DNA of 64,000 bases. Origin: a virus. Its lineage: Duplodnaviria > Caudoviricetes. Position numbers and translations under genes: made by a program. The DNA lies in the IMG/VR virus record IMGVR_UViG_3300028197_000002; one strand, 5' to 3'. Below the pieces are notes generated by a model, which did not search any database, was not told the origin of the DNA, and saw nothing but the letters and a program-made list of their open reading frames with translations. Of the stretch, positions 5,585 to 54,306 are shown one piece after another. The stretch's first letter is position 1. Each line of letters starts with the position of its first letter.

Positions 5585-6562
5585 TTAATCAATGCTACCT
5601 ATTTCTCCACCGTTGCGAGTAATAGCGCCAGCAAAGACTCTTAAATCAACATTGTCATTAATAGTTCTGGTTGATCCATCGGCATATACGCAGTTCATAA
5701 CTCCGGGATGCATACTATATGCCTCACCATCATTAATAACATTAAAAGGAACATTGCCAGAACAGTTCTTGCACTTATCACCATTGGCATCAATACCATG
5801 TAATTTAAATGGACCTAAACTATCTGCCCAACTAATGCATTGGTTAGTTCCACCTGTAGGAGATCTTCCATTACTGGCTTTATAAACATCAGGTCTACTT
5901 GCGCACTCTACAATCATAAGAGTGTTGGAAAAACCATCAATGATATCCTGTTCCTTAGTTACCTTATCTTTTATCAAACAACCATCGTCCCCAGTTTTAT
6001 TTGCATAAGGATCGCTACCAGCAGGAAAAACTTTATCTTTAACACCAGTAAATGTTTCATAGTCAGTATAACCAAGAATGTTAGGGTCTAAACTTGGAGC
6101 AGCACTATCGCTATCTCTAGTAGGCCCATCAACATTAACATAACCACCACCGGGAGGAAGTGCAGATGGACATTTTAGTACCGAGGCTTGTGTTGCAATA
6201 GCTTGAGTATTCTCCCACCAATTCTTATTAAAATCATATATGTTTGCTACATTGCCTTGCTCTAAATTTGCAAGAACAAATGCTCTCCAACTATGTTCTG
6301 TTCGTGATGGATTGCCAAGAGAACTAGGAGTTTCAGATAAATCTTTAGCCTCTATAGTCCAAGCAGCAGCAGGGAAATATTTTTTTTGATCTAAACTCAT
6401 GTGCATTGCAAGACCTTGTTGTTTTAAATTATTAGAGCAACTTGCTCGTCTTGCCGCTTCTCTAGCTTGTTGAACAGCAGGCAATAACAATCCTACTAGA
6501 ACGCCAATAATTGCAATAACCACTAGTAATTCAATCAGCGTGAAACCTTTGCGATTCTTCAT
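5585..6562 (-). CDS. DUF1559 (Planctomycete-type) prepilin N-terminal cleavage/methylation protein with H-X9-DG motif
   Basis: KG|FTLIELLVVIAIIGVLVGLLLPAVQQAREAARR..CSNNLKQ.GLAMH at the N-terminus; HPGVMNCVYADG (H-X9-DG) at the C-terminus. Confidence 0.95.
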   Translation of the reverse strand: MKNRKGFTLIELLVVIAIIGVLVGLLLPAVQQAREAARRASCSNNLKQQGLAMHMSLDQKKYFPAAAWTIEAKDLSETPSSLGNPSRTEHSWRAFVLANLEQGNVANIYDFNKNWWENTQAIATQASVLKCPSALPPGGGYVNVDGPTRDSDSAAPSLDPNILGYTDYETFTGVKDKVFPAGSDPYANKTGDDGCLIKDKVTKEQDIIDGFSNTLMIVECASRPDVYKASNGRSPTGGTNQCISWADSLGPFKLHGIDANGDKCKNCSGNVPFNVINDGEAYSMHPGVMNCVYADGSTRTINDNVDLRVFAGAITRNGGEIGSID

Positions 6563-7509: not shown

Positions 7510-9036
7510 TTATCTTCTTTTTTCTAATTCGAAAGCTCTACCGTTAGATATTAATTTCAATATATGTTTATATGCTAATTCTGGTTTCATTTTTTTAAAT
7601 CTATTGTGATGTATAGCATCTGTCACAAAAGTTTTATCTTCTCCATCTATATTAGCTAAAATTCTTCCATCTTTAATCCATCCTGACAATACTACTTTTG
7701 GGATTGAAGGCTTTGGATCAAATTGAAGTTTGAGTTGTGTGTTTTCTTCCATGTCTTCAAACTCTATTTCTGTTTCTGTAACCTTATCTTCTATTCCATG
7801 TATTATCATTTTAGAAGCCTTTGCTATATTTTGTCTCCTAGCTTTAACATCATCACCTTTAGCTCGCCATAAAGCCAAGTAATTAGGGGCATCTTTGGTT
7901 TCAAAACCAAAATGATGACAAACAACATAGGCAGTTGTCTCAGCGTCTATTTCTTTTTGTTGTCTTGAAGATTGTTTTCCCAGATCAGATTTTTTACTTT
8001 TCTTTTCAAGCCAATGAAGTATTTCATGGGCTGTCTCATGAACCAAAGTGCTAAAAAGGTTCACTCCTTTAAACTTATTGTTGATAGCTATTTTGCCACC
8101 AGCAGAGTAACCGCCTAGGTCTTCAGCCATGTCTTCATAATCAACATTTATACTTTTTTCTTTATTCCATTTTACTAAAGAATTGATAAGAACATTAAGT
8201 TCTTCTACATCTTCATTAGTATCGCTACTCCAGTCTTTTCTATCAAGTGGCTTAAAAGAACTAGGATTACCCGGAATAGGGTCTGTTGCTGAATAATCAT
8301 AAACCTTAACAGCTCTAAAAAACTTAAGTTGAACCTTTTCTTTTTCTCCTGTGCTAGGGTTTTCTTTTTCTATATTTTTAAAATTAGGAGCAAATATAAC
8401 TATGCCTTTGTCCCAATTCGTAACTGTACGTCCTAGTTTTGTCCAATTTGTAGGAGAAGAAACATGCGCAGCTTGTCCTTTTGATTGAACATATATGAGA
8501 ATTTGATTTGCCAAGCTATAATTATGGAATTTAGAAGAAAACTTTAAAAAATCTTTTATGAAACGTTGTTTTCCAGCTTCATCTGTAGAGTTGGCAACTT
8601 TTTCTATTAAGTTTTCTATATTGTCAACTAACTTTTTAAGTTTAGCATCCGTTCCTTTTTTTAGTTCTCCTTCTAGTGAGTCTTGTACGTCTTGAAAGAA
8701 ATCTTCCGTCTCTTGAGAACTTTTATTTTTTACTACACTAGAACTCGAAGGAGGACTAGTCATTGTTTTTTCTAGGCCACTTAAATCAACTCCCAAATCA
8801 ACTAAAGATTGTTTAATATTTTCGAATTTAGATACTCCAATAGACCAAGTTCCTTTGAAGTATTTTAATCCTAATTTTTTCAATTCGTTTTTTATTGGAT
8901 AGGTTGCTCCATATAAAACAACAAATTCTTTTTCGCTGAAGGACTTGGAGGAATCATATTTTGGATTTTCTTTTTTATAAACTCGAACCCCTGTCGAATC
9001 TTCTTCCTCTAAAACTAGCCACTCTGAAAATTGCAT
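7510..9036 (-). CDS. ArdC-like ssDNA-binding + HExxH metallopeptidase-domain protein
   Basis: FSSKFHNYSLANQILIY...WTKLGRTV...IFAP (ArdC N-terminal-like); TLVHETAHEILH...EIDAETTAYVVCHHFG (HExxH); start moved to ATG 9036 because of GAGGG SD and TGA-T-ATG coupling. Confidence 0.75.
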   Translation of the reverse strand: MQFSEWLVLEEEDSTGVRVYKKENPKYDSSKSFSEKEFVVLYGATYPIKNELKKLGLKYFKGTWSIGVSKFENIKQSLVDLGVDLSGLEKTMTSPPSSSSVVKNKSSQETEDFFQDVQDSLEGELKKGTDAKLKKLVDNIENLIEKVANSTDEAGKQRFIKDFLKFSSKFHNYSLANQILIYVQSKGQAAHVSSPTNWTKLGRTVTNWDKGIVIFAPNFKNIEKENPSTGEKEKVQLKFFRAVKVYDYSATDPIPGNPSSFKPLDRKDWSSDTNEDVEELNVLINSLVKWNKEKSINVDYEDMAEDLGGYSAGGKIAINNKFKGVNLFSTLVHETAHEILHWLEKKSKKSDLGKQSSRQQKEIDAETTAYVVCHHFGFETKDAPNYLALWRAKGDDVKARRQNIAKASKMIIHGIEDKVTETEIEFEDMEENTQLKLQFDPKPSIPKVVLSGWIKDGRILANIDGEDKTFVTDAIHHNRFKKMKPELAYKHILKLISNGRAFELEKRR

Positions 9037-9037
9037 A

Positions 9038-9286
9038 TCAACCCTCTTTTTCAATTTTATCTTTTTGTTCGTTTTCATTAATAAGACTTTCTTCTTCTTT
9101 TTGTCTTCTTAAAACACAAACGCATGTTGGAAACTGTGCATTCTCAGAGTAATTAGAGCCACTAGAAGGCATGCCAGTTTCTCTAATAGGCTCCCAACCA
9201 TCTGAAATTAATTTTTCAAGCGGTTTAACAGAAGTGTTCGCGTCTTCTTCTAAAGTCAAAATGACATATTTGTAATCATATTCCAT
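9038..9286 (-). CDS. Hypothetical protein
   Basis: MEYDYKYVILTL...LISDGWEPI; probable ATG 9286, no SD. Confidence 0.55.
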   Translation of the reverse strand: MEYDYKYVILTLEEDANTSVKPLEKLISDGWEPIRETGMPSSGSNYSENAQFPTCVCVLRRQKEEESLINENEQKDKIEKEG

Positions 9287-43962: not shown

Positions 43963-44816
43963 GAATTAAAAAGTATAAAAAAAACGAATATTCTTTGTCA
44001 AAAGATGGAATATGGGTGAGAAACTTATGTTCTAAAGAAAAAAATTTTGATATAAATTATCTTTACAAAGAAGATAAAGAAATTTGTTTAGAAAATGAAT
44101 ATCAAAATATCAAAGGCATAAAAAATATAAATTTTAACAATTTTCATAGTGATGTAATCATATGTTCCGATGGATTTAAATGGAATAAAAAACAATTTGC
44201 TTTGAGCGAAATCCCAAACAGCAAAGCAAGAGTAATAGGAACAAATGGTTCTTTAAGAGAATGGCAAATGGTCGGATCTCTTTCTGACAAAAAAAGAGTT
44301 ATGAATTATTATTTTATAAATAATCCATACAAAGAAGCTTTAAGCTATTTGCCAACAAAACATGCCTACTACCCACCGGTAATTTCATCTTTAAGAACGC
44401 ATCCTGAATTCATAAACGCGTATAGAGATAAAGATGTTTCTTGGTACAGTCCTCCTGAAGAAGATAATTATTCTATTCCAAAAAATAGAGTTCAAACATT
44501 TTTAGATGACTACAGGAATCCAATTTGTGGCGCTGTAAATTTGGCTTATAGAATCGGTGCAAAAAGAATATTCTTATTTTGCTGTGATGAGGCTTTCAAA
44601 GATCATAGAGACGCTTCTATAGAAATGCACAACGGTTTGTATCAATATCCTCAGCAAATAATGTCTCAAAACATATTGGATAAACAATTTTATTGGCTTA
44701 ATAAAAATAATGTTGAAATTTTTGACTGCTCTAGTGGTATAAAATATGAAAATGCAACATATATAACAGAAGAAGAATTAATTTCGTTTTTTCAAAGGAG
44801 TGATAAAAATGGATAA
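43959..44816 (+). CDS. MAF/DUF115(MptE)-like protein, possible glycosylation-associated enzyme
   Basis: VIICSDG, VIGTNGS and NPICGAVNLAYRIGAKRIFLFCCD resemble the MAF-type 'A+.LA..+G.K.I.L.G.D' pattern. Confidence 0.45.
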   Translation: MRIKKYKKNEYSLSKDGIWVRNLCSKEKNFDINYLYKEDKEICLENEYQNIKGIKNINFNNFHSDVIICSDGFKWNKKQFALSEIPNSKARVIGTNGSLREWQMVGSLSDKKRVMNYYFINNPYKEALSYLPTKHAYYPPVISSLRTHPEFINAYRDKDVSWYSPPEEDNYSIPKNRVQTFLDDYRNPICGAVNLAYRIGAKRIFLFCCDEAFKDHRDASIEMHNGLYQYPQQIMSQNILDKQFYWLNKNNVEIFDCSSGIKYENATYITEEELISFFQRSDKNG

Positions 44817-45108
44817 CAATAACAAAAATGACTTATCTTTAGACGATTTCAAAAAATGGATAAAAGGTCAGGATGACTTTGCATCTAGATTTTCCAAAAG
44901 ATTCCCAATAGGCGAAAAAGTAATATCGCGTTGTGGCGGAAGAAAACTTTCAGAAACAATAACTCTTGATGAAGGCAATTTAAAAAGAGTTATAAAAGAA
45001 TTTCTAAAAAATGGCGGAAAAATAAAAGAATTCGACGATTACGAATATATTATCGAAGTTAGATGTGGATCTTTTTCTGTTAAGAAAAACTATGTGATGT
45101 TAGATTGA
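44809..45108 (+). CDS. Hypothetical protein
   Basis: AGGAG SD before ATG 44809. Confidence 0.55.
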   Translation: MDNNNKNDLSLDDFKKWIKGQDDFASRFSKRFPIGEKVISRCGGRKLSETITLDEGNLKRVIKEFLKNGGKIKEFDDYEYIIEVRCGSFSVKKNYVMLD

Positions 45109-45112
45109 TTAA

Positions 45113-45490
45113 TTATTTTTTCTTTCTTAGCATTGTGCTACGTGTATCTAAAAGAGCATCTTTATTTATTTTGGATATATTATTTGTGATATAGAAATTT
45201 GTTTCTCGAAAAGGCAAATTTCTATATCCTCTTTTTGCTAAAGACCTCTTTAGTCCCTCATACCCTTCTTCAGATGATTCTATCCACATTTCATTAAGCA
45301 TATTATTTTCACGCAGCTCAGTATTGAGTTTTTTTATAAGATCTTTAGAAAGACCTAATTCAATTAATTTATTTATATTTTCTATCTTTATAGGATAAGT
45401 TTTTGATTTAGTAGCAAAAGACAACAAGACTTTCACGCCTCTTTTATCTCTTCTTGCTAGATATATAAAAATTTTATTTTTTGCTTTCAT
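45113..45490 (-). CDS. Hypothetical basic protein
   Basis: 125 aa, Lys/Arg-rich. Confidence 0.5.
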   Translation of the reverse strand: MKAKNKIFIYLARRDKRGVKVLLSFATKSKTYPIKIENINKLIELGLSKDLIKKLNTELRENNMLNEMWIESSEEGYEGLKRSLAKRGYRNLPFRETNFYITNNISKINKDALLDTRSTMLRKKK

Positions 45491-45609
45491 TTAACAACTT
45501 CTTAAAAAATTCTTCTAAAACTATTTTAGTATGTGAATCCATTTTTCCAAATTGGTTAAAAAAAGATTCAAAAGTTTCAACAATTTCTTTGTCTTTATTT
45601 GTATTTGTC

Positions 45610-45882
45610 ATGATACCACTTTCTGAATACGCAAAAGCATACAACAAGATATGTATATATTATTTCGGGGATTCAATTAATTTCATTAATTCTCTAATTG
45701 ATAGTCAAAAAATTTATAAAGAAAATTTTCCTGATATAAAGGTATTTATATGTTGTAAGGACGAACTTTTTGAAACTTTTGAAAATAAAGAAAATATGAT
45801 ATGTCGGTCTGATCTTATTAAATCTAAAAATAAATTCGCCTACATAAGAGAAGTTAATCCAAATTTCAACAATATTGTTTAA
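45610..45882 (+). CDS. Short GT9-N-terminal-like hypothetical protein (start uncertain)
   Basis: YYFGDSINFI...KENFPDIKVFICC resembles GT9 'GD.i.....K..FP...I....'. Confidence 0.3.
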   Translation: MIPLSEYAKAYNKICIYYFGDSINFINSLIDSQKIYKENFPDIKVFICCKDELFETFENKENMICRSDLIKSKNKFAYIREVNPNFNNIV

Positions 45883-45924
45883 GTTTATTTTTAAAATAAT
45901 ATATAATATTAGGAGAAATGATAT

Positions 45925-46497
45925 ATGAGTACTTTTAAAGTTAAATTAACTGGATATGGCACAGGCCCGACAGCGCAAGGAGCCTTGGCATCAGCAGGCG
46001 GCGTTGATCAAAGAACTGTTTGGATAATGGGTCCAGACAGAACAAATAGAAAATTAAAAGATGGAGCTGTTTTTGATGATGTAAATTATTGGAAAAGATA
46101 CGCATATCCACAAGTTCCTTTAGACGAAGCAATTATTGAAGTTGTAACCGATGACGGAATTGAATGGCTAGACGATAGACAAACTAATTTTCCAAGAGTA
46201 TATGACATCACAGCTGCCGGAGGTTCTGCTTTTTCTACCAATATAGCTGACATATTAAGCACCACAGATGGCTATGCTGTGTTTGCTCAAATAACTAATA
46301 AAAGTACAACTCAAGATGTAACTTTAAGACTAAACAAAGATGATTCTGCCATCATAGATCTTCCAGCAGGATCAACTCAATCTTTTCAAGCAGGAGATGT
46401 TTCTATAAGCACTATTGAAATTGGAAATGATGCAGTAGGAGCAGTAGACGCTGAAGTTCAAATCTTAGTCTCAATATCAGTCGTTCCAAGAAGCTAA
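45925..46497 (+). CDS. Probable virion structural protein
   Basis: AGGAG SD; beta-rich, small-residue-rich. Confidence 0.55.
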   Translation: MSTFKVKLTGYGTGPTAQGALASAGGVDQRTVWIMGPDRTNRKLKDGAVFDDVNYWKRYAYPQVPLDEAIIEVVTDDGIEWLDDRQTNFPRVYDITAAGGSAFSTNIADILSTTDGYAVFAQITNKSTTQDVTLRLNKDDSAIIDLPAGSTQSFQAGDVSISTIEIGNDAVGAVDAEVQILVSISVVPRS

Positions 46498-46645
46498 TTT
46501 ATTATGCATGAATAATTTAACAAGAGCGTTAAAAAAGTTTCAAGGAGGAAACATGGATGTTGTTAAATTAGCAGGAAGAAAAGACATGGTTTTATATAAA
46601 AAAGATTAAATTGCTAAAAGACATGGTTCTAAACTACATTATTAA

Positions 46646-47590
46646 ATGTCAAGATTAGATCGTCAAAATGGACTTTCGATTAGTGAGTTTGTCGAAAAAA
46701 GAAATAAGATTCTTATACTGATGAAAGACGGTGGCTTGGGCGATGTGTTCTCTTACAGAATGATTTTTGAAGATATTAAAAAATTAATTCCAAATGCTTA
46801 TGTGGTTTTTGCGTGTCCAGAAAAATACTTTTCAGCAATTGAAGATCATCCTTTTATAGATGAGGTCACAAATTGTGAAACAATAGATAAAAAAGAATTT
46901 ATTGTTCACTATGACATAACTTCAGTTTGTTTTGAACATGAAATGAAAATTGCTCCATTCTCTGATTTAAATAGAAGCGATATTGTGTCTGAGCATTGTG
47001 GCTTTGCATTAACCAACCATAACATGCATATTAATCTAGAAGAAATTCATGTAAAAGAAGCAAAAGAAAAATTGCCAAATAAAATTAATTTTGCTATATG
47101 TCCTTTTTCAAAAGTTCCAGCTCGATCAATGACAATGAGTCAAATTAAAAAAATAAAAAATAAATTAGACAGTCTAGATATTAATTTAATTTGTTTACAT
47201 AATAAAGAAAACAAAGACTTAGAAAATATTGGAATTCCTGTTTGGAGCGAATTGAATAATAAGCAATGGATGGGATCTTTAGCAGCGGTAGATTATGTAA
47301 TAAGCGTAGATACAGCCAGCTTTCATTTTTCTGGTGGGATTGAAAAACCTTTAATTGGAATTTTTGGACCTACAGATGGAAAAGTAATCGGAAAGCATTA
47401 CAAATTCATTTTAATTCAAAGACACAGGGATGAAGGAGACTGGGATTGTGGACCTTGCCATAACTGGTTTAGTTGTCCAAAAACAAAAAATGCAATAAAA
47501 CCTTGTATAAAAGAAATAAATGATGAAAAGTTAATAAATAGTATTGACGTAATTTTAGAAAAATATCCCATAAAATACTCTAATAACTAA
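46646..47590 (+). CDS. Glycosyltransferase family 9 (heptosyltransferase-like)
   Basis: GGLGDV, and DYVISVDTASFHFSGGIEKPLIGIFGPT. Confidence 0.9.
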   Translation: MSRLDRQNGLSISEFVEKRNKILILMKDGGLGDVFSYRMIFEDIKKLIPNAYVVFACPEKYFSAIEDHPFIDEVTNCETIDKKEFIVHYDITSVCFEHEMKIAPFSDLNRSDIVSEHCGFALTNHNMHINLEEIHVKEAKEKLPNKINFAICPFSKVPARSMTMSQIKKIKNKLDSLDINLICLHNKENKDLENIGIPVWSELNNKQWMGSLAAVDYVISVDTASFHFSGGIEKPLIGIFGPTDGKVIGKHYKFILIQRHRDEGDWDCGPCHNWFSCPKTKNAIKPCIKEINDEKLINSIDVILEKYPIKYSNN

Positions 47591-47604
47591 GAATACATAA
47601 TAAT

Positions 47605-47853
47605 ATGGCACATTTAATAAAACCCGGAGAAATAAAAGTAGTTAGTAAAGATAATGAGGTATCAGTCAATATCTCATTAGACTTAAATATTTCTCTAGAC
47701 GGGACTGTAACTGGTGTGAGTACCCAGATTCAAAACTCTCAGCAACCATCTTTAGGCGAAAATAAAATTGATTCTCCTGAAGACACCACATGGGCGATAC
47801 CAGATTTTGAATCTGCTTCAGGCAAGTTGAAATTTGGAAAAGAAGAAAAATAA
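47605..47853 (+). CDS. Small protein upstream of the actin-like gene
   Basis: 82 aa; TACATA-N5-ATG upstream. Confidence 0.55.
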   Translation: MAHLIKPGEIKVVSKDNEVSVNISLDLNISLDGTVTGVSTQIQNSQQPSLGENKIDSPEDTTWAIPDFESASGKLKFGKEEK

Positions 47854-47876
47854 AATAAGAAAGAAAGAGGTGAAAA

Positions 47877-48896
47877 ATGGCAATAGGATTTGACGCAGGA
47901 ACTTATCATTTAGTTAGTTGTAAAAAACAAGGCGAAGAATATATTTACAAAAAAGAGGTAAATGCTTTTTTGGAAATGCCTTTAGAAAACAGATTTGTTT
48001 TCAATATGATGAACAACGCAGGAGTCCCTTTAATCGAAAACAAAGAAGCAAATGTTGCTTACGCTCTTGGTGAAAAGGCTGTAGATATGGCTTACACTAT
48101 GAATCAAATAGAACTTAAAAGGCCTATGAAAGATGGATGCTTAAATCCAAAAGAAAGACATGCGCAACAAATAATGAATGTTATGGCGCATAGTCTCATA
48201 GGAGAGATTTCGCAAAATGAAGAAAAGTTGTATTACTCTGTCCCTGCAAATGCTATAAATCAAGAAACTGACGCTGATTATCACTCTAAGATATTGCAAG
48301 CAATGTTCAAAGCTTACGAAAGTGAGCAAGGCTTTAAAGTTGATGCATATCCTATTAATGAAGCTTTGGCTTTAGTGTATGCTGAGTTAACAAATAAAAA
48401 TTGGACTGGAATTGGAATTTCTTTTGGCGCTGGAATGGTGAATCTTTGTTACGCTATTTATGGAGCGCCAATTTTTCAGTTTTCTTTAGTTAACAGTGGA
48501 GATTGGATTGACAAGATGGCTTCAAAAGCAATAGGTGAAGATACTACCACTTATGTAAACAAAGAAAAAATGAAATCTGATCTAACTATTGATCAACCTG
48601 ATACGCTTGTTCAAAGAGCAATCAAAACTCAGTACGAGATCATGATTCAACACACAGTCAATGGAATAAAACAAGGTTTAGAAAATGCTGGAAACAAAGC
48701 AAGATCAGAGGAACCTATTGACATAGTAATTGCTGGCGGTACTAGTATGCCAGTTGGATTCGAAAAAATGTTTTCTACAATATTAGAGCAATCAGGTATT
48801 TCTGATAACATTAAAGTCGGCTCTGTAATTCGACCAAACGACCCTTTGTTCTCTGTGGCCAGAGGATGTTACATCGCAGCTGAAAACGCAACTTAA
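47877..48896 (+). CDS. Actin-fold ATPase (MreB/FtsA/ParM superfamily)
   Basis: Phosphate-1 IGFDAGT, connect-1 INEALA, phosphate-2 GISFGAGM, adenosine IVIAGGTSM, connect-2 FSVARGC; GAGGTG SD. Confidence 0.85.
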   Translation: MAIGFDAGTYHLVSCKKQGEEYIYKKEVNAFLEMPLENRFVFNMMNNAGVPLIENKEANVAYALGEKAVDMAYTMNQIELKRPMKDGCLNPKERHAQQIMNVMAHSLIGEISQNEEKLYYSVPANAINQETDADYHSKILQAMFKAYESEQGFKVDAYPINEALALVYAELTNKNWTGIGISFGAGMVNLCYAIYGAPIFQFSLVNSGDWIDKMASKAIGEDTTTYVNKEKMKSDLTIDQPDTLVQRAIKTQYEIMIQHTVNGIKQGLENAGNKARSEEPIDIVIAGGTSMPVGFEKMFSTILEQSGISDNIKVGSVIRPNDPLFSVARGCYIAAENAT

Positions 48897-49129
48897 TGAG
48901 AGGAAAAATGAAGAAAATTGTCACGGACCTAGGAGCAGGAGCTTACCTTCTTATGCATGGCCATAAAGTGGTAGGAAGAAAAGGCAAAGAATTTATATTT
49001 GAAGTAAATGAATCAGAGGAAAATGAATTCGAAGAAAGAAAGCTAGAATATCTCTCTAGTGAGTTTCATAGATTTGATTCTTACATTATGTCTTTAAAGA
49101 AAATAGGGGAGTATTATCCTCGAAAATAA
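48896..49129 (+). CDS. Small DUF5659-like protein
   Basis: TDLGAGAYLLMHG...KEFIF pattern; coupled to the actin-like gene (alternative start 48908). Confidence 0.45.
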   Translation: MRGKMKKIVTDLGAGAYLLMHGHKVVGRKGKEFIFEVNESEENEFEERKLEYLSSEFHRFDSYIMSLKKIGEYYPRK

Positions 49130-49167
49130 TAACTAAAAATATTATTTTAATATAATAAATAAGTATT

Positions 49168-50622
49168 ATGAAAAGCATAGCAGATTATTTCAGAGATGTA
49201 CTTATAGAACTTTCGAGCAATCTAAGAAAGCACTTAGAGGAGCTTGAAGCTTCGGTAAGAAAACATATAGCAGATTCAACTTCACCTTCGGGACAGCCAG
49301 CCAATGCAACGAACCGAAGTGAATCTTCAATTGTTGAGTCATACAAGAAAAAAAGAAAACTTTTTGATTTTGTGAAGTTAGAAAGCGAAAACTTTTTATT
49401 AAATTTTCCAGAAGGAAAGTTGAAACAATACACTTTTAAGCAAAATTTTGCAAATAAACTAATTGAATTTGCAATCAATGAAGCAGAAGTAATAAATGAA
49501 GAAGATCTTTCAAAAATCATAAATGATTTTAAAGAAAAAGTTATTAGATCAATGTCTGTGGCTAGCAATTCTATTCGAACAAAACAGCAGTTCACTAAAG
49601 AATTTGATCCTAAAGCAATAGTTGATAACGACGATGATGATGGACCATCTACACAAACGTATGATGATAAATCTGATGATGAAATTGAAGATATTGTCAA
49701 AAATCAACAAGCATCCACAAGCCAAAAGTCAAGTGCAGATGTCAAAAATCAACAAGCATCTAAAAGCCAAAAATCAAGTTCAGACGTCAAAGGAACTGCT
49801 ACCGCTAGTGACGTAGAAGAATTAGAACAACGTGAAGATGAAGAAAAAATAGCTTTAGATGAATTAAATTCTTTTTCAGACGAAGATAAAGAAGCAATAA
49901 TTTCTAATTTTCTTAATGCAGGTATTTTAAATCTTGATGGAAAAGTAAAAATTCCAACTGGAGATTTCAAGGGCATTCTCAAAAGAAGGACAGATAAAGA
50001 ATTAGAAAAGTATCTTCCGTCATTAACGAGCGATCACGTTGCTCATCTTATGGCCATAATGGTACATATAGCTCATGAACAAGAAGAAGATGGCTACGCT
50101 TCTATTTTTGAGAAAATTAAAAAGTTATATAAAAAAACAATAACTGAAATTGGAAAAAAATCTGGCGAGGAAGCAGCTAAACCACAAGATTCTAATAAAA
50201 CAACATCTAAAGCAGCTAAACCACAAGAAGATCCTAAAACAAAGCCCCAGAAAGCCCCAGAATCGTCAGTTAAGCCTCAGATGAAGTCTTACTCGTCTAA
50301 TTCGGTTAAGCCGGAAACAAAGCCTACAGACGATTCTAGGGATACACCGTCTATTCCAAGGCCAAAACTTCCACAAAGTGTCAAAACACCCACAGATTTT
50401 GCCAATTGGATGCAAAAGCTTTCTAGAGACATATATTCTACAAATAAATCAATAGGAACAATGGCTCAAGAAACCGCCAAAACTGCAAAAGATGCAGTTA
50501 GTCGTGGCGCTTTTAATGCCATAAACCCAGAAGAGCAATTTAATGCTTTTATGAATCTGGCTTTATCAGAACTTTCAGAAGAAGATTTATATAAATTAAT
50601 TACTTCAACTTCTGGATTTTAA
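49168..50622 (+). CDS. Hypothetical low-complexity protein
   Basis: 484 aa; acidic and K/P/S-rich linkers; TAAATA-N6-ATG upstream. Confidence 0.6.
   Translation: MKSIADYFRDVLIELSSNLRKHLEELEASVRKHIADSTSPSGQPANATNRSESSIVESYKKKRKLFDFVKLESENFLLNFPEGKLKQYTFKQNFANKLIEFAINEAEVINEEDLSKIINDFKEKVIRSMSVASNSIRTKQQFTKEFDPKAIVDNDDDDGPSTQTYDDKSDDEIEDIVKNQQASTSQKSSADVKNQQASKSQKSSSDVKGTATASDVEELEQREDEEKIALDELNSFSDEDKEAIISNFLNAGILNLDGKVKIPTGDFKGILKRRTDKELEKYLPSLTSDHVAHLMAIMVHIAHEQEEDGYASIFEKIKKLYKKTITEIGKKSGEEAAKPQDSNKTTSKAAKPQEDPKTKPQKAPESSVKPQMKSYSSNSVKPETKPTDDSRDTPSIPRPKLPQSVKTPTDFANWMQKLSRDIYSTNKSIGTMAQETAKTAKDAVSRGAFNAINPEEQFNAFMNLALSELSEEDLYKLITSTSGF
49696..49791 (+). repeat. 45-nt coding tandem duplication
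   Basis: GTCAAAAATCAACAAGCATC...CAGA(T/C) at 49696 and 49741, then GTCAAA. Confidence 0.85.
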
Positions 50623-52862
50623 TTAAATAAGTCTTTAATATTAATAGATGGATCTCTCTTTCTAGTCTTAGGATCAGTTCTCATAACTCTACTTTTTCTT
50701 CTTACGTTTTTCGCAAGCCATTTAAGAGCAGAAGTAAAAATTCCGTCTTTTTTGCCTTTTTGAGAAGTATCAACACCACTTTTCTTTGCCTGTTTTTCTT
50801 CAGCATCTTGAGCGACTTTGCCAACCTCTCTGTCAATAGAATCTACATTTGAGGATTGCATCTGTTTTAATTTAGATTTCAATTCATCTTGTCTTTTTTC
50901 AAGTTCTTTATCTAAAGCTTCTCCTGAATGACTAGATCTTCCTAGATTAAGTTCTATATCTTCTATCTCTTGCTCTAAAGAATCAACTTGAGATTCATTT
51001 TGATAAACTTGAGCAAGTAATTGTGGTATAGTTGCTATTTCTTGCTGTGGGTTGACTTTTCGAATAATTCTATTCCATTTCTCAGGAGTTTCTAATCTCA
51101 AGAATATTTGCAATATCATTTTTGCATAATTATCTCCTTGAGTATTTGCATTTGATTTGACTTTATTTGCCAATCTTTGCATTTTCTCTTTATCACCAGA
51201 CTTATATGCTTTTGCATAAGAAGGAATTATATCTCTAGATGCTTTGTCTCTAAAATAAATTAAAGCATTAGGCAATATTTTCGAATCAGCGTTTTCAGAC
51301 AATCCATATACTAAAGCTTTTTGATAAGGATTGTTAGATTTCATCATTTCGCTTTGAAGACGATTTGTTATTCCGTCTTTCACATCTTCACTGACATTTA
51401 ATTCTTTAAACACATGATTGTGAAATTCTTGAAGATCTTGATCTGATCCATCGAATATGTCTAATAATCTTGTGTGTATTTTTTCTTTTTGTTGCCAGTT
51501 TGGATTCATAGTTCCATAACCAGTAAATTTGGTATGTGGGTTCGAAGTTCCACCTTTTTGATAAGCAACATTAAATTTGTCGACATTAAGTCTTCGAGCT
51601 TTATTTCTTATCTTGTCAGTATGACCTTTTACTTTTCTTGAATAAGCTTCTATTTTTTTCTTTATAACACCAGAGATGTATTTTTCTTGTTGTTCTTCAG
51701 AAAGATCTTTTATAATAGGAATTAATTTTTTATATTCATCTTCAAATTTATCTTTTTTACGACTGATGTACTGAGCTGTTTTAATTAAACGATTAAGCTT
51801 ATCTCTTTCCAGTATCTTTTTTCTTCTTTCGCTAGTTCCTTTTTTATTTTCTTCAAGCCATTTGACAACTTCTTCTAGTTCCTTCTCTTTTTTAGAAAGC
51901 TCACTCTTATTTAAAAAAGTTTCGTCTGACAAATCAATCAAATCTATGTAATCTTTAAAATTTTCTTCTTCTAAATCTTTATCAAGTTGTTTTTCTATTC
52001 CACTCCAAATATCATGTGCTTTTTTAGTGGATGTCGCAATCATAAAAGCAGGTTTTAATATTGGAACATTTTCTTCAAAAGTAACAGTTTGGGTAATGCC
52101 ATTTTTACCTTTCTTTTGAACTGTAAACGTCTTAGGTTCAATAGGAATATCTTTTTTGCTGTAGAGAGTTTCTCTTCCTTGAGTAGAACCAACCCACTTC
52201 TCTTTTTTAATTTTACCAGAAGTATTAAATTTTCCTCTTTGATGCTCTCCTATCTCATTGTCATGCCAACCTTCTTCTGTCGCATTTATTAAGGTTCTAA
52301 GTCTTTTTCGAATTGAATTTAAATCAGGGACAATGTACCCAGCAGCTTTTCCAAAATTTTGAGCTTTACCTTTTCCTGTTTCGTTTCCACTCCATTTGAA
52401 ATCTTCAAAACTAAATCCATATTTGCCTTTTTTACCTTCTCTAGATATTTCAGAATACTTATCTGATTTATTGAAAGCTAAAGACGCATAAGCTTCATCA
52501 TCTACATCTGCATTGAGCTTGTCATATAATTTATTAATCCCAGTATCTACATTTGGAACTTTATAGCCATTTTTAAAATTTACTGTTTGGCGGTCCGATA
52601 TCTTTCCATTTTTTTCTCTGGCTTCATGAGCCTTATATAATAACCATCCATATCTTTGATATAAAGCTTGCGACCAAAACTTAGTTGGAAACTGATTCAA
52701 ATAATCAATATCATCTTGATCTAAAAAGATAGGTGTTTTTCTTGTTTCGTGAACAACTTCTTCTGTGCCGTCATCTTTTGTATATTTGATAGGCTTTGTA
52801 GCCATCTCCGAAACTGTTGCTTCATGAATGTCTTTTGCTTTTAAATAATCATTAAATTTCAT
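50619..52862 (-). CDS. Large hypothetical protein, possible internal head protein
   Basis: 747 aa, Lys-rich, coiled coils; MKFNDYLK N-terminus. Confidence 0.6.
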   Translation of the reverse strand: MKFNDYLKAKDIHEATVSEMATKPIKYTKDDGTEEVVHETRKTPIFLDQDDIDYLNQFPTKFWSQALYQRYGWLLYKAHEAREKNGKISDRQTVNFKNGYKVPNVDTGINKLYDKLNADVDDEAYASLAFNKSDKYSEISREGKKGKYGFSFEDFKWSGNETGKGKAQNFGKAAGYIVPDLNSIRKRLRTLINATEEGWHDNEIGEHQRGKFNTSGKIKKEKWVGSTQGRETLYSKKDIPIEPKTFTVQKKGKNGITQTVTFEENVPILKPAFMIATSTKKAHDIWSGIEKQLDKDLEEENFKDYIDLIDLSDETFLNKSELSKKEKELEEVVKWLEENKKGTSERRKKILERDKLNRLIKTAQYISRKKDKFEDEYKKLIPIIKDLSEEQQEKYISGVIKKKIEAYSRKVKGHTDKIRNKARRLNVDKFNVAYQKGGTSNPHTKFTGYGTMNPNWQQKEKIHTRLLDIFDGSDQDLQEFHNHVFKELNVSEDVKDGITNRLQSEMMKSNNPYQKALVYGLSENADSKILPNALIYFRDKASRDIIPSYAKAYKSGDKEKMQRLANKVKSNANTQGDNYAKMILQIFLRLETPEKWNRIIRKVNPQQEIATIPQLLAQVYQNESQVDSLEQEIEDIELNLGRSSHSGEALDKELEKRQDELKSKLKQMQSSNVDSIDREVGKVAQDAEEKQAKKSGVDTSQKGKKDGIFTSALKWLAKNVRRKSRVMRTDPKTRKRDPSINIKDLFN

Positions 52863-53293
52863 TTTTTTCCTTGGTTCATCATCGAATCCGACAAATTAGA
52901 TAGTTCTCCTATATTTATTTCTTGATCTTTCAAAATTTCTCTTTGTTCTTTTAATTTTTCCAGTTGTTTTTCGGCTTTTTCAGGAGCTTTTTTATTTAAT
53001 TCTTTATAACTGTCTATTTCTTTAGCGTCTTTAGGGTCATTTGGGTTTAATATTTCTTCTTCAGAAAGTCCCACAATGTGTTGCAAAAAGAAAAAGCTTC
53101 TAAGTTTTTTGTTGTTGTTCCACTGTTCTAATGTGACTCCATGACTATTAATTTCTAAAATCTTACCCACAAAATAATGAAATACTGGTTGTGGAAATGT
53201 ATTTGGGTTTTCTGACTTGAAGTCTCTGTTAGTAGGAATTGTGAATATGGTGCATACTCGTCCTTGAAAATATTCTAAATCTTTTATTTTCAC
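52859..53293 (-). CDS. Hypothetical protein (Sm-like beta N-terminus)
   Basis: GRVCTIFT...YFVGKILEINSHGVTL. Confidence 0.45.
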   Translation of the reverse strand: MKIKDLEYFQGRVCTIFTIPTNRDFKSENPNTFPQPVFHYFVGKILEINSHGVTLEQWNNNKKLRSFFFLQHIVGLSEEEILNPNDPKDAKEIDSYKELNKKAPEKAEKQLEKLKEQREILKDQEINIGELSNLSDSMMNQGKK

Positions 53294-54306
53294 AGTCTTC
53301 TTCCTCTTAATTGTGTGCTAAGAAAAAAATCGTATTGTTTTTCGTGTTGATGTATATAGTACCTAACAACTTTTAAGCCATCGTGTTGATACATGGCATT
53401 CCAGTCTTTATGTTCCTTAGATGCTCTCACATAAAAAATATTTTTAAATCCTTTTTGTAATAAAAAATCTCCCATTTTTGGCAAGGCGTCAGCACCAGCA
53501 CTGTCCGCATCTAGGCATAAAACAGGAACGTAGGATTTTATAATCTCTATTTGAGCATCCGAAAGTTCTTTTCCTCCAAAAGCAGCAGAGTAAAGACCAC
53601 ATTGACTAAGAGAAATTGCATCAAATTCTCCTTCTGTCAAATAAATTTTTTCTCCATCTTTTGGCCACTCAGGAACGTAAAGGACATCTCCTTTTCCAAT
53701 TCCAAGTTCTTTAGGAGGACCTAAGTATCTTAATTTACTATCACCTATACTTCTTCCATTGTAGTAAATTAATTCTTTATTTTTATTATAATAAGGAATT
53801 AAAATTCTATTTTTATATCTCCCTGATGTACAGACAAATAATTTGTCTGTACTGATCTTTCTTCCTTTCAGATAATCTTCGGCATTTTTTTTATAAAAAT
53901 TATTTGAAGGAAGATCATCAAATTTATACGTTCCTTCAGGAAGTTTTAAAGAAGTATTTTCTATTTCAATAAATGTTTTTTCAATTTTTATTTCAAATAT
54001 ATTCTTAACTTTATTTTCAAGATCTGCAATAGTGTGATTTGAAGTTTCAAGTATTTCTAAAGCATCATCAAAAGAGCATTTGTCAACTTGCATTACAAGA
54101 TTGACTAAAGAGCCTTTGCTGTCTGTTTTCCAGCAATGAAAAACTCCATAGGGAGCTTTGTTTTTACCTCCACTTGGATTACACCACATGTGATGTTTGT
54201 AATCATCGCAAAATATTGAATTTAATTTAACCTCTTCTCCTTTCACAACAACGTCATGAAAGCGAGATTCAGCCCAATCTAAAAATAAATCAAAATCTAT
54301 AGACAT
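53290..54306 (-). CDS. DNA primase (DnaG/T4 gp61-like)
   Basis: N-terminal Zn-binding region (C..HH..C..FHCW); TOPRIM IYLTEGEFDA and LCLDADSAG. Confidence 0.9.
   Translation of the reverse strand: MSIDFDLFLDWAESRFHDVVVKGEEVKLNSIFCDDYKHHMWCNPSGGKNKAPYGVFHCWKTDSKGSLVNLVMQVDKCSFDDALEILETSNHTIADLENKVKNIFEIKIEKTFIEIENTSLKLPEGTYKFDDLPSNNFYKKNAEDYLKGRKISTDKLFVCTSGRYKNRILIPYYNKNKELIYYNGRSIGDSKLRYLGPPKELGIGKGDVLYVPEWPKDGEKIYLTEGEFDAISLSQCGLYSAAFGGKELSDAQIEIIKSYVPVLCLDADSAGADALPKMGDFLLQKGFKNIFYVRASKEHKDWNAMYQHDGLKVVRYYIHQHEKQYDFFLSTQLRGRRL

Follow-up and report, generated by a model that had tools for sequence, protein, structure and literature searches.

Do huge tailed phages that carry no tubulin build an actin cytoskeleton in the cells they infect? 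The question is raised by three consecutive genes at positions 47,605 to 49,129 of IMGVR_UViG_3300028197_000002, a 64,000-nucleotide (nt) stretch of phage DNA that we refer to as the window. The middle gene codes for an actin homologue of 339 residues, and each of its two neighbors codes for a small protein. Judging from the sequences and structure models presented here, the phages related to this one, which lack tubulin, probably do build actin filaments in their host. New here is a phage volactin-type cassette with two partners; volactin itself is known from haloarchaea. The features of the locus are as follows:

47605..47853, + strand: upstream partner gene, 82 residues, isoelectric point (pI) 4.6; open reading frame (ORF) with homologues before actin
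47791..47841, + strand: C-terminal motif of the upstream partner, W63-A-I-P-D-F68...K-L-K-F77-G78-K79, seen in 25 homologues
47854..47876, + strand: 23-nt spacer with the ribosome-binding site AGAGGTG ahead of the actin start
47877..48896, + strand: volactin-family actin homologue, 339 residues (P0001; PF25216)
48408..48443, + strand: phosphate-2 loop of the actin, residues 178-189, G-I-G-I-S-F-G-A-G-M-V-N, with S182, G184, G186 and N189 conserved
48896..49129, + strand: downstream partner, DUF5659-like; 77 residues from the ATG at 48896 or 73 residues from the ATG at 48908

Family membership and motifs of the phage actin

The 339-residue protein matched the Pfam hidden Markov model Volactin (PF25216) along its whole length (residues 1-335 on profile positions 1-321 of 321), with an expectation value (E) of 3.6e-64. 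At 217.7 bits, against a cut-off of 35 bits, it scored above the gathering threshold over the entire domain and is a member of the volactin family. In a set of 14 control genomes the same model found matches in four, including Haloferax volcanii, and scored above the cut-off in only one. Other actin families fitted less well. The Pfam MreB/Mbl model (PF06723) gave 27.0 bits, at its cut-off, and covered residues 46-131 only. An identity as MreB was rejected with the NCBIfam models PRK13927 and TIGR00904 (21.8 and 19.6 bits against cut-offs of 293 and 366), as was an identity as MamK (NF040964, 40.7 bits against 400). No Pfam match to the ParM/StbA family was found on the protein at E values up to 0.1. 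The ParM/StbA models also gave no match in two near-complete relatives, but they were equally silent in all controls, which makes that search uninformative. PHROGs contained no family for any of the three cassette proteins.

We found 1178 homologues of the actin, many of them on contigs of 100-630 kb. The initial annotation of the locus had listed all the actin-superfamily motifs in this ORF, and the five motifs are indeed present and conserved in an alignment of 94 sequences: phosphate 1 (D6, G8, T9), connect 1 (E162), phosphate 2 (S182-F-G184-A-G186), adenosine (G287-G288-T-S) and connect 2 (G330). The canonical first phosphate-2 residue of the actin fold is Asp. Here the position is occupied by Ser, which is at least 90% conserved in the family and is also found in the Halorubrum volactin used for comparison. 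In many relatives the actin is interrupted in frame by inteins of about 370 residues (Hint/Intein_splicing plus LAGLIDADG), as in L049:4992-7133, L050:1930-4062 and the proteins P0123, P0132, P0135, P0200, P0159, P0160, P0134, P0174, P0208 and P0237. The inteins use three sites, all in the nucleotide-binding core (G-x-S/C...N/C-G-A-G-M; G-A-G-M/C...N/C-N; and before G-D-W-I-D), and the phosphate-2 loop region hosts two of the three, one inside the loop and one just after it. The family also includes a tandem double-actin protein with two full PF25216 domains (among P0136 of 729 residues, P0195 of 908 residues and others), and in many of its forms the N terminus is extended by 100-580 residues without a Pfam match.

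The actin belongs to a conserved three-gene cassette

All three ORFs are co-oriented, and the stop codon of the actin gene overlaps an ATG (TAATGA). To see how the arrangement holds up among relatives, we compared 50 IMG/VR loci with actin identities of 54-82%, 43 of which are non-redundant. An upstream-partner homologue was located 5' of the actin gene, mostly directly so, in 47 of the 48 loci that contain the region (one was missed by tblastn and spotted by eye). In nearly all loci a downstream-partner homologue followed the actin, either adjacent to it or behind an inserted gene of 0.1-1.1 kb. The trio was retained at an actin identity of only 42%, again beside PKD fibers and a GT9 glycosyltransferase, and it also occurs in the 595-kb GenBank record LR756511; more distant volactin-bearing phage contigs have other neighbors. 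Among the insertions are a GIY-YIG-like ORF that separates the actin from the upstream partner in L027 (2806-3519) and ORFs of 220-313 residues between the actin and the downstream partner (L011:6024-6686, L012:6057-6998 and L136:4083-4775). Such extra genes are present in many relatives, and the linkage of the three genes survives even where they are no longer adjacent. We conclude from these comparisons that they form a conserved cassette, as initially proposed, in which the actin has two dedicated partner genes.

Measured against the window over the 43 non-redundant loci, median identity was 63% for the actin, 64% for the downstream partner, 48% for the primase, 42% for both the upstream partner and a 190-residue neighbor, 39% for the GT9 glycosyltransferase and 34% for a 144-residue neighbor. 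In every locus compared, the actin was better conserved than every neighbor except the downstream partner. The sequences indicate that the actin is under strong purifying selection.

Structural neighbors of the phage actin

The AlphaFold (AF2) model of the actin had a predicted local distance difference test (pLDDT) score of 95.6 and a predicted template-modeling (pTM) score of 0.92. Model and conserved residues together reveal an actin fold with an intact nucleotide-binding site. A sequence search of the Protein Data Bank (PDB) with the single 339-residue protein returned chance matches only. When the profile of the 94-member family was used against the PDB, the matches were MamK (3.5e-15), BeeR (2.5e-11), MreB (8e-10), FtsA (1e-6), DnaK (7e-4) and eukaryotic actin (0.07). 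The top Foldseek match of the model was the MamK filament. An exhaustive VIA-align search gave Z scores of 28.4 for BeeR, 26.7 for MreB, 25.8 for crenactin, 24.0 for actin, 23.9 for BiP, 22.6 for FtsA, 17-22.5 for ParM structures and 17-18.6 for sugar kinases. BFVD contained no near viral model; its best matches, at a template-modeling (TM) score of 0.6, were Hsp70 homologues and gp506 of phage G.

The closest solved structures are thus those of BeeR, MreB, crenactin and MamK. Grouping with non-filament actin-fold enzymes would have spoken against the initial annotation; instead, BeeR scored 28.4 and the sugar kinases 17-18.6, although the margin over Hsp70 is small. Family profile and model together lead us to place the phage protein in a filament-type actin lineage and not among the sugar kinases or Hsp70s, which agrees with the initial annotation in this respect. 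MamK and BeeR (PDB 5ljv/5jyg and 8r2n; PMC11929497), two of the nearest in structure and the two strongest profile matches, polymerize with ATP. They share only 17-18% identity with the phage protein, however, and neither a magnetosome context nor a BeeR-type disordered N-terminal extension is found here.

Could the protein nevertheless be a non-polymerizing actin-fold ATPase, with a chaperone-like or regulatory function in virion assembly (compare Hsp70 domains, FtsA/PilM scaffolds and EutJ) and with the small proteins as its clients or co-factors? Hsp70 nucleotide-binding domains and PilM/FtsA, at Z scores of 21-24, are near the top matches, Ser replaces Asp in phosphate 2, and the gene is found beside structural genes. 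However, the characterized member of the family, volactin, is a filament former, as are all four of the best structural matches. Moreover, the 339-residue protein has no substrate-binding or extra domain, and conservation above that of the primase is the pattern of multi-interface polymers. We consider this explanation very unlikely.

The two partner proteins

The upstream partner had been described as a small protein with a C-terminal W-A-I-P-D-F...L-K-F-G tail, and this tail is present (W63-F68 ... K-L-K-F77-G78-K). The protein has no Pfam, PHROG or NCBIfam family. A variable linker joins its conserved N-terminal module (residues 1-33) to the C-terminal peptide, which is conserved as well. 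Its N-terminal stretch may be beta hairpin-like, as suggested by an alternating residue pattern. Among the 25 homologues, I65, P66 and F68 are invariant, and F77 and G78 are at least 90% conserved; the clade with 42% actin identity keeps a related motif, Y-I-P-D-E-L-F-D-E-F. The C-terminal motif is a candidate actin-docking peptide. The upstream family is acidic, with a median pI of 5.4. A feature search of the ESM Atlas gave scores that were all below 0.9 and uninformative. Prediction of a complex between the actin (94 alignment rows) and the upstream partner (25 rows) twice gave an ipSAE of 0.01 with the partner poorly folded, which speaks neither for nor against binding.

The downstream gene probably starts at the ATG at 48908, behind the sequence GAGAGG. 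Its family has 1016 members, compared with 1178 for the actin, and 18 residues are invariant among 16 homologues. The AF2 model (pLDDT 88.9) has a beta-alpha-beta-beta-alpha-alpha fold. Foldseek found no solved structure like it (E above 0.4), and the best VIA-align Z score, 4.7, is in the range of common alpha/beta arrangements, with no solved DNA-binding fold among the matches. The initial annotation had called this gene coupled and DUF5659-like. The coupling is borne out by the TAATGA overlap, but the label is weakly supported: two of the 16 homologues matched PF18903 (DUF5659) at an E of 0.007, and the copy in the window did not match at E values up to 0.1. Among viral ESM Atlas clusters, the model resembled a DUF5659 cluster in which 52% of the members have PF18903 (TM scores of 0.69/0.63, root-mean-square deviation of 2.4 over 68 residues). 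In many relatives the downstream partner is tandem-duplicated or fused, at about 150 residues, which implies that copies with one domain function as dimers. The median pI of the family is 6.3.

An actin-like ATPase encoded on a mobile element beside a small partner gene is also found in AlpC/AlpA of the Corynebacterium prophage CGP3 (PMC4446434, PMC5539076) and, on plasmids, in ParM/ParR and AlfA/AlfB. AlpC is, moreover, a precedent for a phage actin in viral DNA transport or replication (PMC4446434, PMC5539076). By analogy, the cassette could be a type II (ParMRC-like) segregation system, in which the actin would separate phage genomes in a plasmid-like carrier state and one of the small proteins would be the centromere-binding adaptor. 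Much as in parM-parR and alfA-alfB, a small gene is tightly coupled behind the actin gene, CGP3 pairs its actin AlpC with the adaptor AlpA (PMC4446434, PMC5539076), and the dimer implied by the tandem duplication of the downstream partner is a state shared by many DNA binders. A repeat search of the cassette region (44000-53500), however, found only two-copy families, none of them in the cassette spacers and the largest intergenic one being a two-copy 16-mer. Neither partner family is basic (acidic to neutral, with median pI values of 5.4 and 6.3), the downstream fold has no match to a solved DNA-binding domain (best Z 4.7), the actin is outside the ParM family (its Pfam matches being Volactin and a weak MreB only), and the genome is T4-like, with no lysogeny module seen in the window. 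Because there is no repeat array nearby, no basic partner and no recognized DNA-binding fold in the downstream model, a ParMRC-like system is less likely, and we view it as quite unlikely overall.

The known systems differ from the cassette in further respects: they use another actin family (ParM Z scores of 17-22.5 against 28.4 for BeeR), whereas here there are two partners, both non-basic; centromere-like repeats are absent near the cassette; and the carrier is a huge T4-like phage rather than a temperate prophage or plasmid. Thus, the comparison with ParM or AlfA plus an adaptor that had been drawn initially does not hold up well in detail, given a non-ParM actin, acidic-to-neutral partners and no centromere-like repeats near the cassette.

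Relationship to the volactins of haloarchaea

The founding member of the family, volactin (VolA, HVO_2015) from Haloferax volcanii, assembles in vivo into filaments that show dynamic instability (Schiller et al., 2024; PMC10869688). We scanned for relatives in one genome per prokaryotic species with a 12-sequence alignment and inspected the best 80 of 349 loci. Among these 80, the three best relatives were on short contigs binned into metagenome-assembled genomes (MAGs), and dozens of Halobacteriales chromosomes followed at 32-35% identity. Two of the binned contigs, L056 (JAYVUD010000122.1, 'Chloracidobacterium sp. MAG') and L057 (JBGPGB010000129.1, 'Nitrosotalea sp. MAG'), carry the actin, tandem copies of the downstream partner, the 144-residue neighbor and a primase, and L056 additionally holds the 190-residue neighbor, GT9 and the upstream partner. 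Since homologues of the downstream partner and the primase are present (in L056 also the upstream partner), we take both to be phage contigs binned into cellular genomes; their MAG labels would be misleading for inferring host or taxon.

The phage protein aligned over its full length with the gene product of Halorubrum ezzemoulense DSM 17463 (33% identity, 58% positives, E of 6e-66, 337 columns). The phage protein and volactin share PF25216 over the full length, the S-F-G-A-G phosphate-2 loop, a similar size and the lack of extra domains. They differ in that one is encoded by an archaeal chromosome and the other by a tailed phage, in belonging to separate, well-supported clades, and in that volactin is without the two partners: in the loci examined, neither small partner adjoins a haloarchaeal volactin. 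A role in making disk-shaped cells cannot carry over to the phage actin. Trees were built with IQ-TREE in quick mode and with FastTree, the latter with three MreB sequences as the outgroup. The volactin family was on a long branch (2.3 substitutions per site) away from the three MreB sequences. The haloarchaeal genes formed one clade (support 0.999), and the clade of the window's protein (support 0.998) was placed within a separate clade of 25 sequences (support 1.0), whose members, where looked up, were in phage contexts. The deep branching of the volactin-family tree lacks resolution. From this placement we take the phage gene to represent an old, separate lineage of volactins and not a recent capture from haloarchaea.

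Phage context and probable host

The phage setting given in the initial annotation is supported by several hallmark genes. Upstream of the cassette the window encodes a gp5-type spike with an OB domain, a P2-I-type (Tail_P2_I) baseplate protein and PKD-repeat fibers, and downstream of it a DnaG-type primase and a PD-(D/E)XK nuclease. The cassette is the last part of a co-oriented run of 36 kb that comprises baseplate, fiber and glycosyltransferase genes. No tRNA genes were found in the window, whose GC content is 28-42%. An identical actin protein was found on a contig of 372,493 bp; the phage is T4-like and marine, with a contig of at least 372 kb. Records behind L031, L046, L041 and L042 (G001, G002, G004 and G005), of 340-430 kb and up to 98% complete, have the IMG/VR class 'provirus'; in huge T4-like phages with many host-like genes, such a class may be an artifact or a hint of integration.

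One gene of the window bears on the host:

5585-6562, - strand: prepilin-type DUF1559 protein (Pfam PF07596, E of 1.6e-40) with an N-terminal methylation (N-methyl prepilin-like) motif

This gene is a planctomycete-type signature inside a phage. Because the window carries it, a host among the Planctomycetota, as suggested initially, is plausible, and on this sequence evidence Planctomycetota is probably the host phylum. Planctomycetota are known to lack FtsZ. It is conceivable, in such a host, that the filaments and their partners are directed at the cell itself and not at phage components, reshaping it or blocking division, for instance by a stop to budding or an enlargement of the cell. In keeping with this idea, the sole known role of volactin is in a cell-shape transition (PMC10869688), the probable host phylum (DUF1559 in the window) has no FtsZ, and non-basic partners suit protein or membrane targets as well as phage cargo. 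Family scans, however, recognized no membrane-targeting helix or host-protein-like domain in the three proteins, there is no link between the cassette and host division genes, and the actin gene is in the structural and replication region, away from early host-takeover genes. We regard a host-directed cytoskeleton as unlikely.

A possible role in positioning phage assemblies or DNA

No tubulin (PF00091) turned up when we searched five records of related huge phages, of which two are 97-98% complete; the same search was positive in 13 of 14 control genomes. Two related records that were searched, one of them 97% complete, each have a single volactin gene. Thus, with no tubulin in the five records and one volactin gene in each of the two, the actin is the only cytomotive candidate found. 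We lean towards the view that volactin-family, ATP-driven filaments, together with the two partners, position or move phage assemblies or DNA. The 339-residue actin would bind and hydrolyze ATP and polymerize, forming dynamic filaments in the cytoplasm of the infected cell. The upstream 82-residue protein would dock its W-A-I-P-D-F...F-G-K peptide onto the actin, while its N-terminal beta module would oligomerize or hold cargo, so that the protein would serve as an adaptor or assembly regulator. The DUF5659-like protein would be the second partner, acting as a dimer. As the cassette ends the 36-kb co-oriented structural block, the filaments probably act late, and they would position or move phage assemblies or DNA, the job of the PhuZ tubulin in other giant phages.

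The PhuZ spindle of nucleus-forming jumbo phages is likewise made of a phage-encoded cytomotive protein found across a lineage of very large phages (PMC4244570, PMC7950403), and its job, positioning or transport within infected cells, is the one proposed here for the actin. PhuZ differs in having a tubulin fold and using GTP, where the phage volactin has an actin fold and would use ATP, and the function of PhuZ has been shown experimentally, whereas polymerization, partner binding, timing and cargo are here inferred. A broader proposal is that volactin-type filaments, together with a DUF5659-like protein in dimeric form and an adaptor that acts through its C-terminal peptide, make up a distinct and widespread class of virus-encoded cytoskeleton, with a PhuZ-like role in huge phages that lack tubulin, including those of the FtsZ-less Planctomycetota. 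We offer this as a tentative and still doubtful proposal.

Several points weigh against filaments with a late positioning role. The fold ranking by itself is no proof of polymerization, since the Hsp70 nucleotide-binding domain trails the filament formers by no more than 2-4 Z units. Because phosphate 2 starts with Ser, ATP hydrolysis may be slower or differently catalyzed. Late timing comes from gene order only, and the T4 late-promoter word TATAAATA is not enriched in the window, with nine matches against 8.8 expected and none before the cassette. Scans of the window for sigma-70-like promoters and terminators gave no more matches than expected by chance. Short contigs identical or nearly identical to the upstream partner gene, one of which reaches the first codons of the actin, are present in marine metatranscriptome libraries from two studies; they are a weak sign of transcription, as carry-over of DNA is possible.

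Neighboring genes and other features

Further genes of the window are listed here:

7510-9078, - strand: 522-residue protein with an ArdC N-terminal (anti-restriction) domain (PF08401, E of 4.3e-6)
45925..46497, + strand: the 190-residue upstream neighbor, with no family match (Pfam, PHROG, NCBIfam)
49168-50622, + strand: 484-residue acidic low-complexity protein, encoded by the first gene after the cassette
50619-52862, - strand: 747-residue gene product, convergent with the 484-residue gene

The 190-residue neighbor is present in 39 of the 43 non-redundant loci and is missing from L053, a locus of the clade with 42% actin identity. It accompanies the cassette in the closer clade and is not counted within the module. 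The two copies of the 16-mer AAAAGACATGGTT[TC]TA (46579-46594 and 46616-46631, 37 nt apart) are in the 149-nt spacer before the GT9 gene that precedes the cassette, and could be a regulatory site. The gene for the 484-residue protein contains 45-nt and 39-nt tandem repeats (49695-49784 and 50171-50242). Its positional counterparts in L136 and L011 also code for large low-complexity proteins, with no detectable similarity to it. The 484- and 747-residue proteins both start with an M-K-x-x-x-D-Y-type sequence reminiscent of T4 capsid-targeting-like leaders, and none of the three cassette proteins has an N terminus of this type.

Implications for phage and volactin biology

Phage-encoded cytoskeletons are, to our knowledge, known from few systems: PhuZ, the TubZ-type tubulins and the AlpC actin of one prophage. 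They have reshaped the understanding of infection as a spatially organized process. None of the volactin papers listed in our literature searches concerns phages, and the reviews of jumbo-phage cell biology that were searched describe tubulin only; for phage actins the searches returned AlpC of CGP3 and plasmid-prophage ParM-like systems, with no description of this cassette. The cassette brings in a different actin lineage, conserved above the primase and represented by about 1000 metagenomic phage proteins on contigs of up to 630 kb. If the actin polymerizes, it would provide a tractable new cytomotive system, made of three small soluble proteins amenable to expression and reconstitution. 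It would then also hint at what DUF5659-like phage proteins do, and offer a way into the organization of giant-phage infection in a phylum with unusual cell biology. The volactin family itself is barely characterized, and phage members with defined partners could help to explain the archaeal protein.

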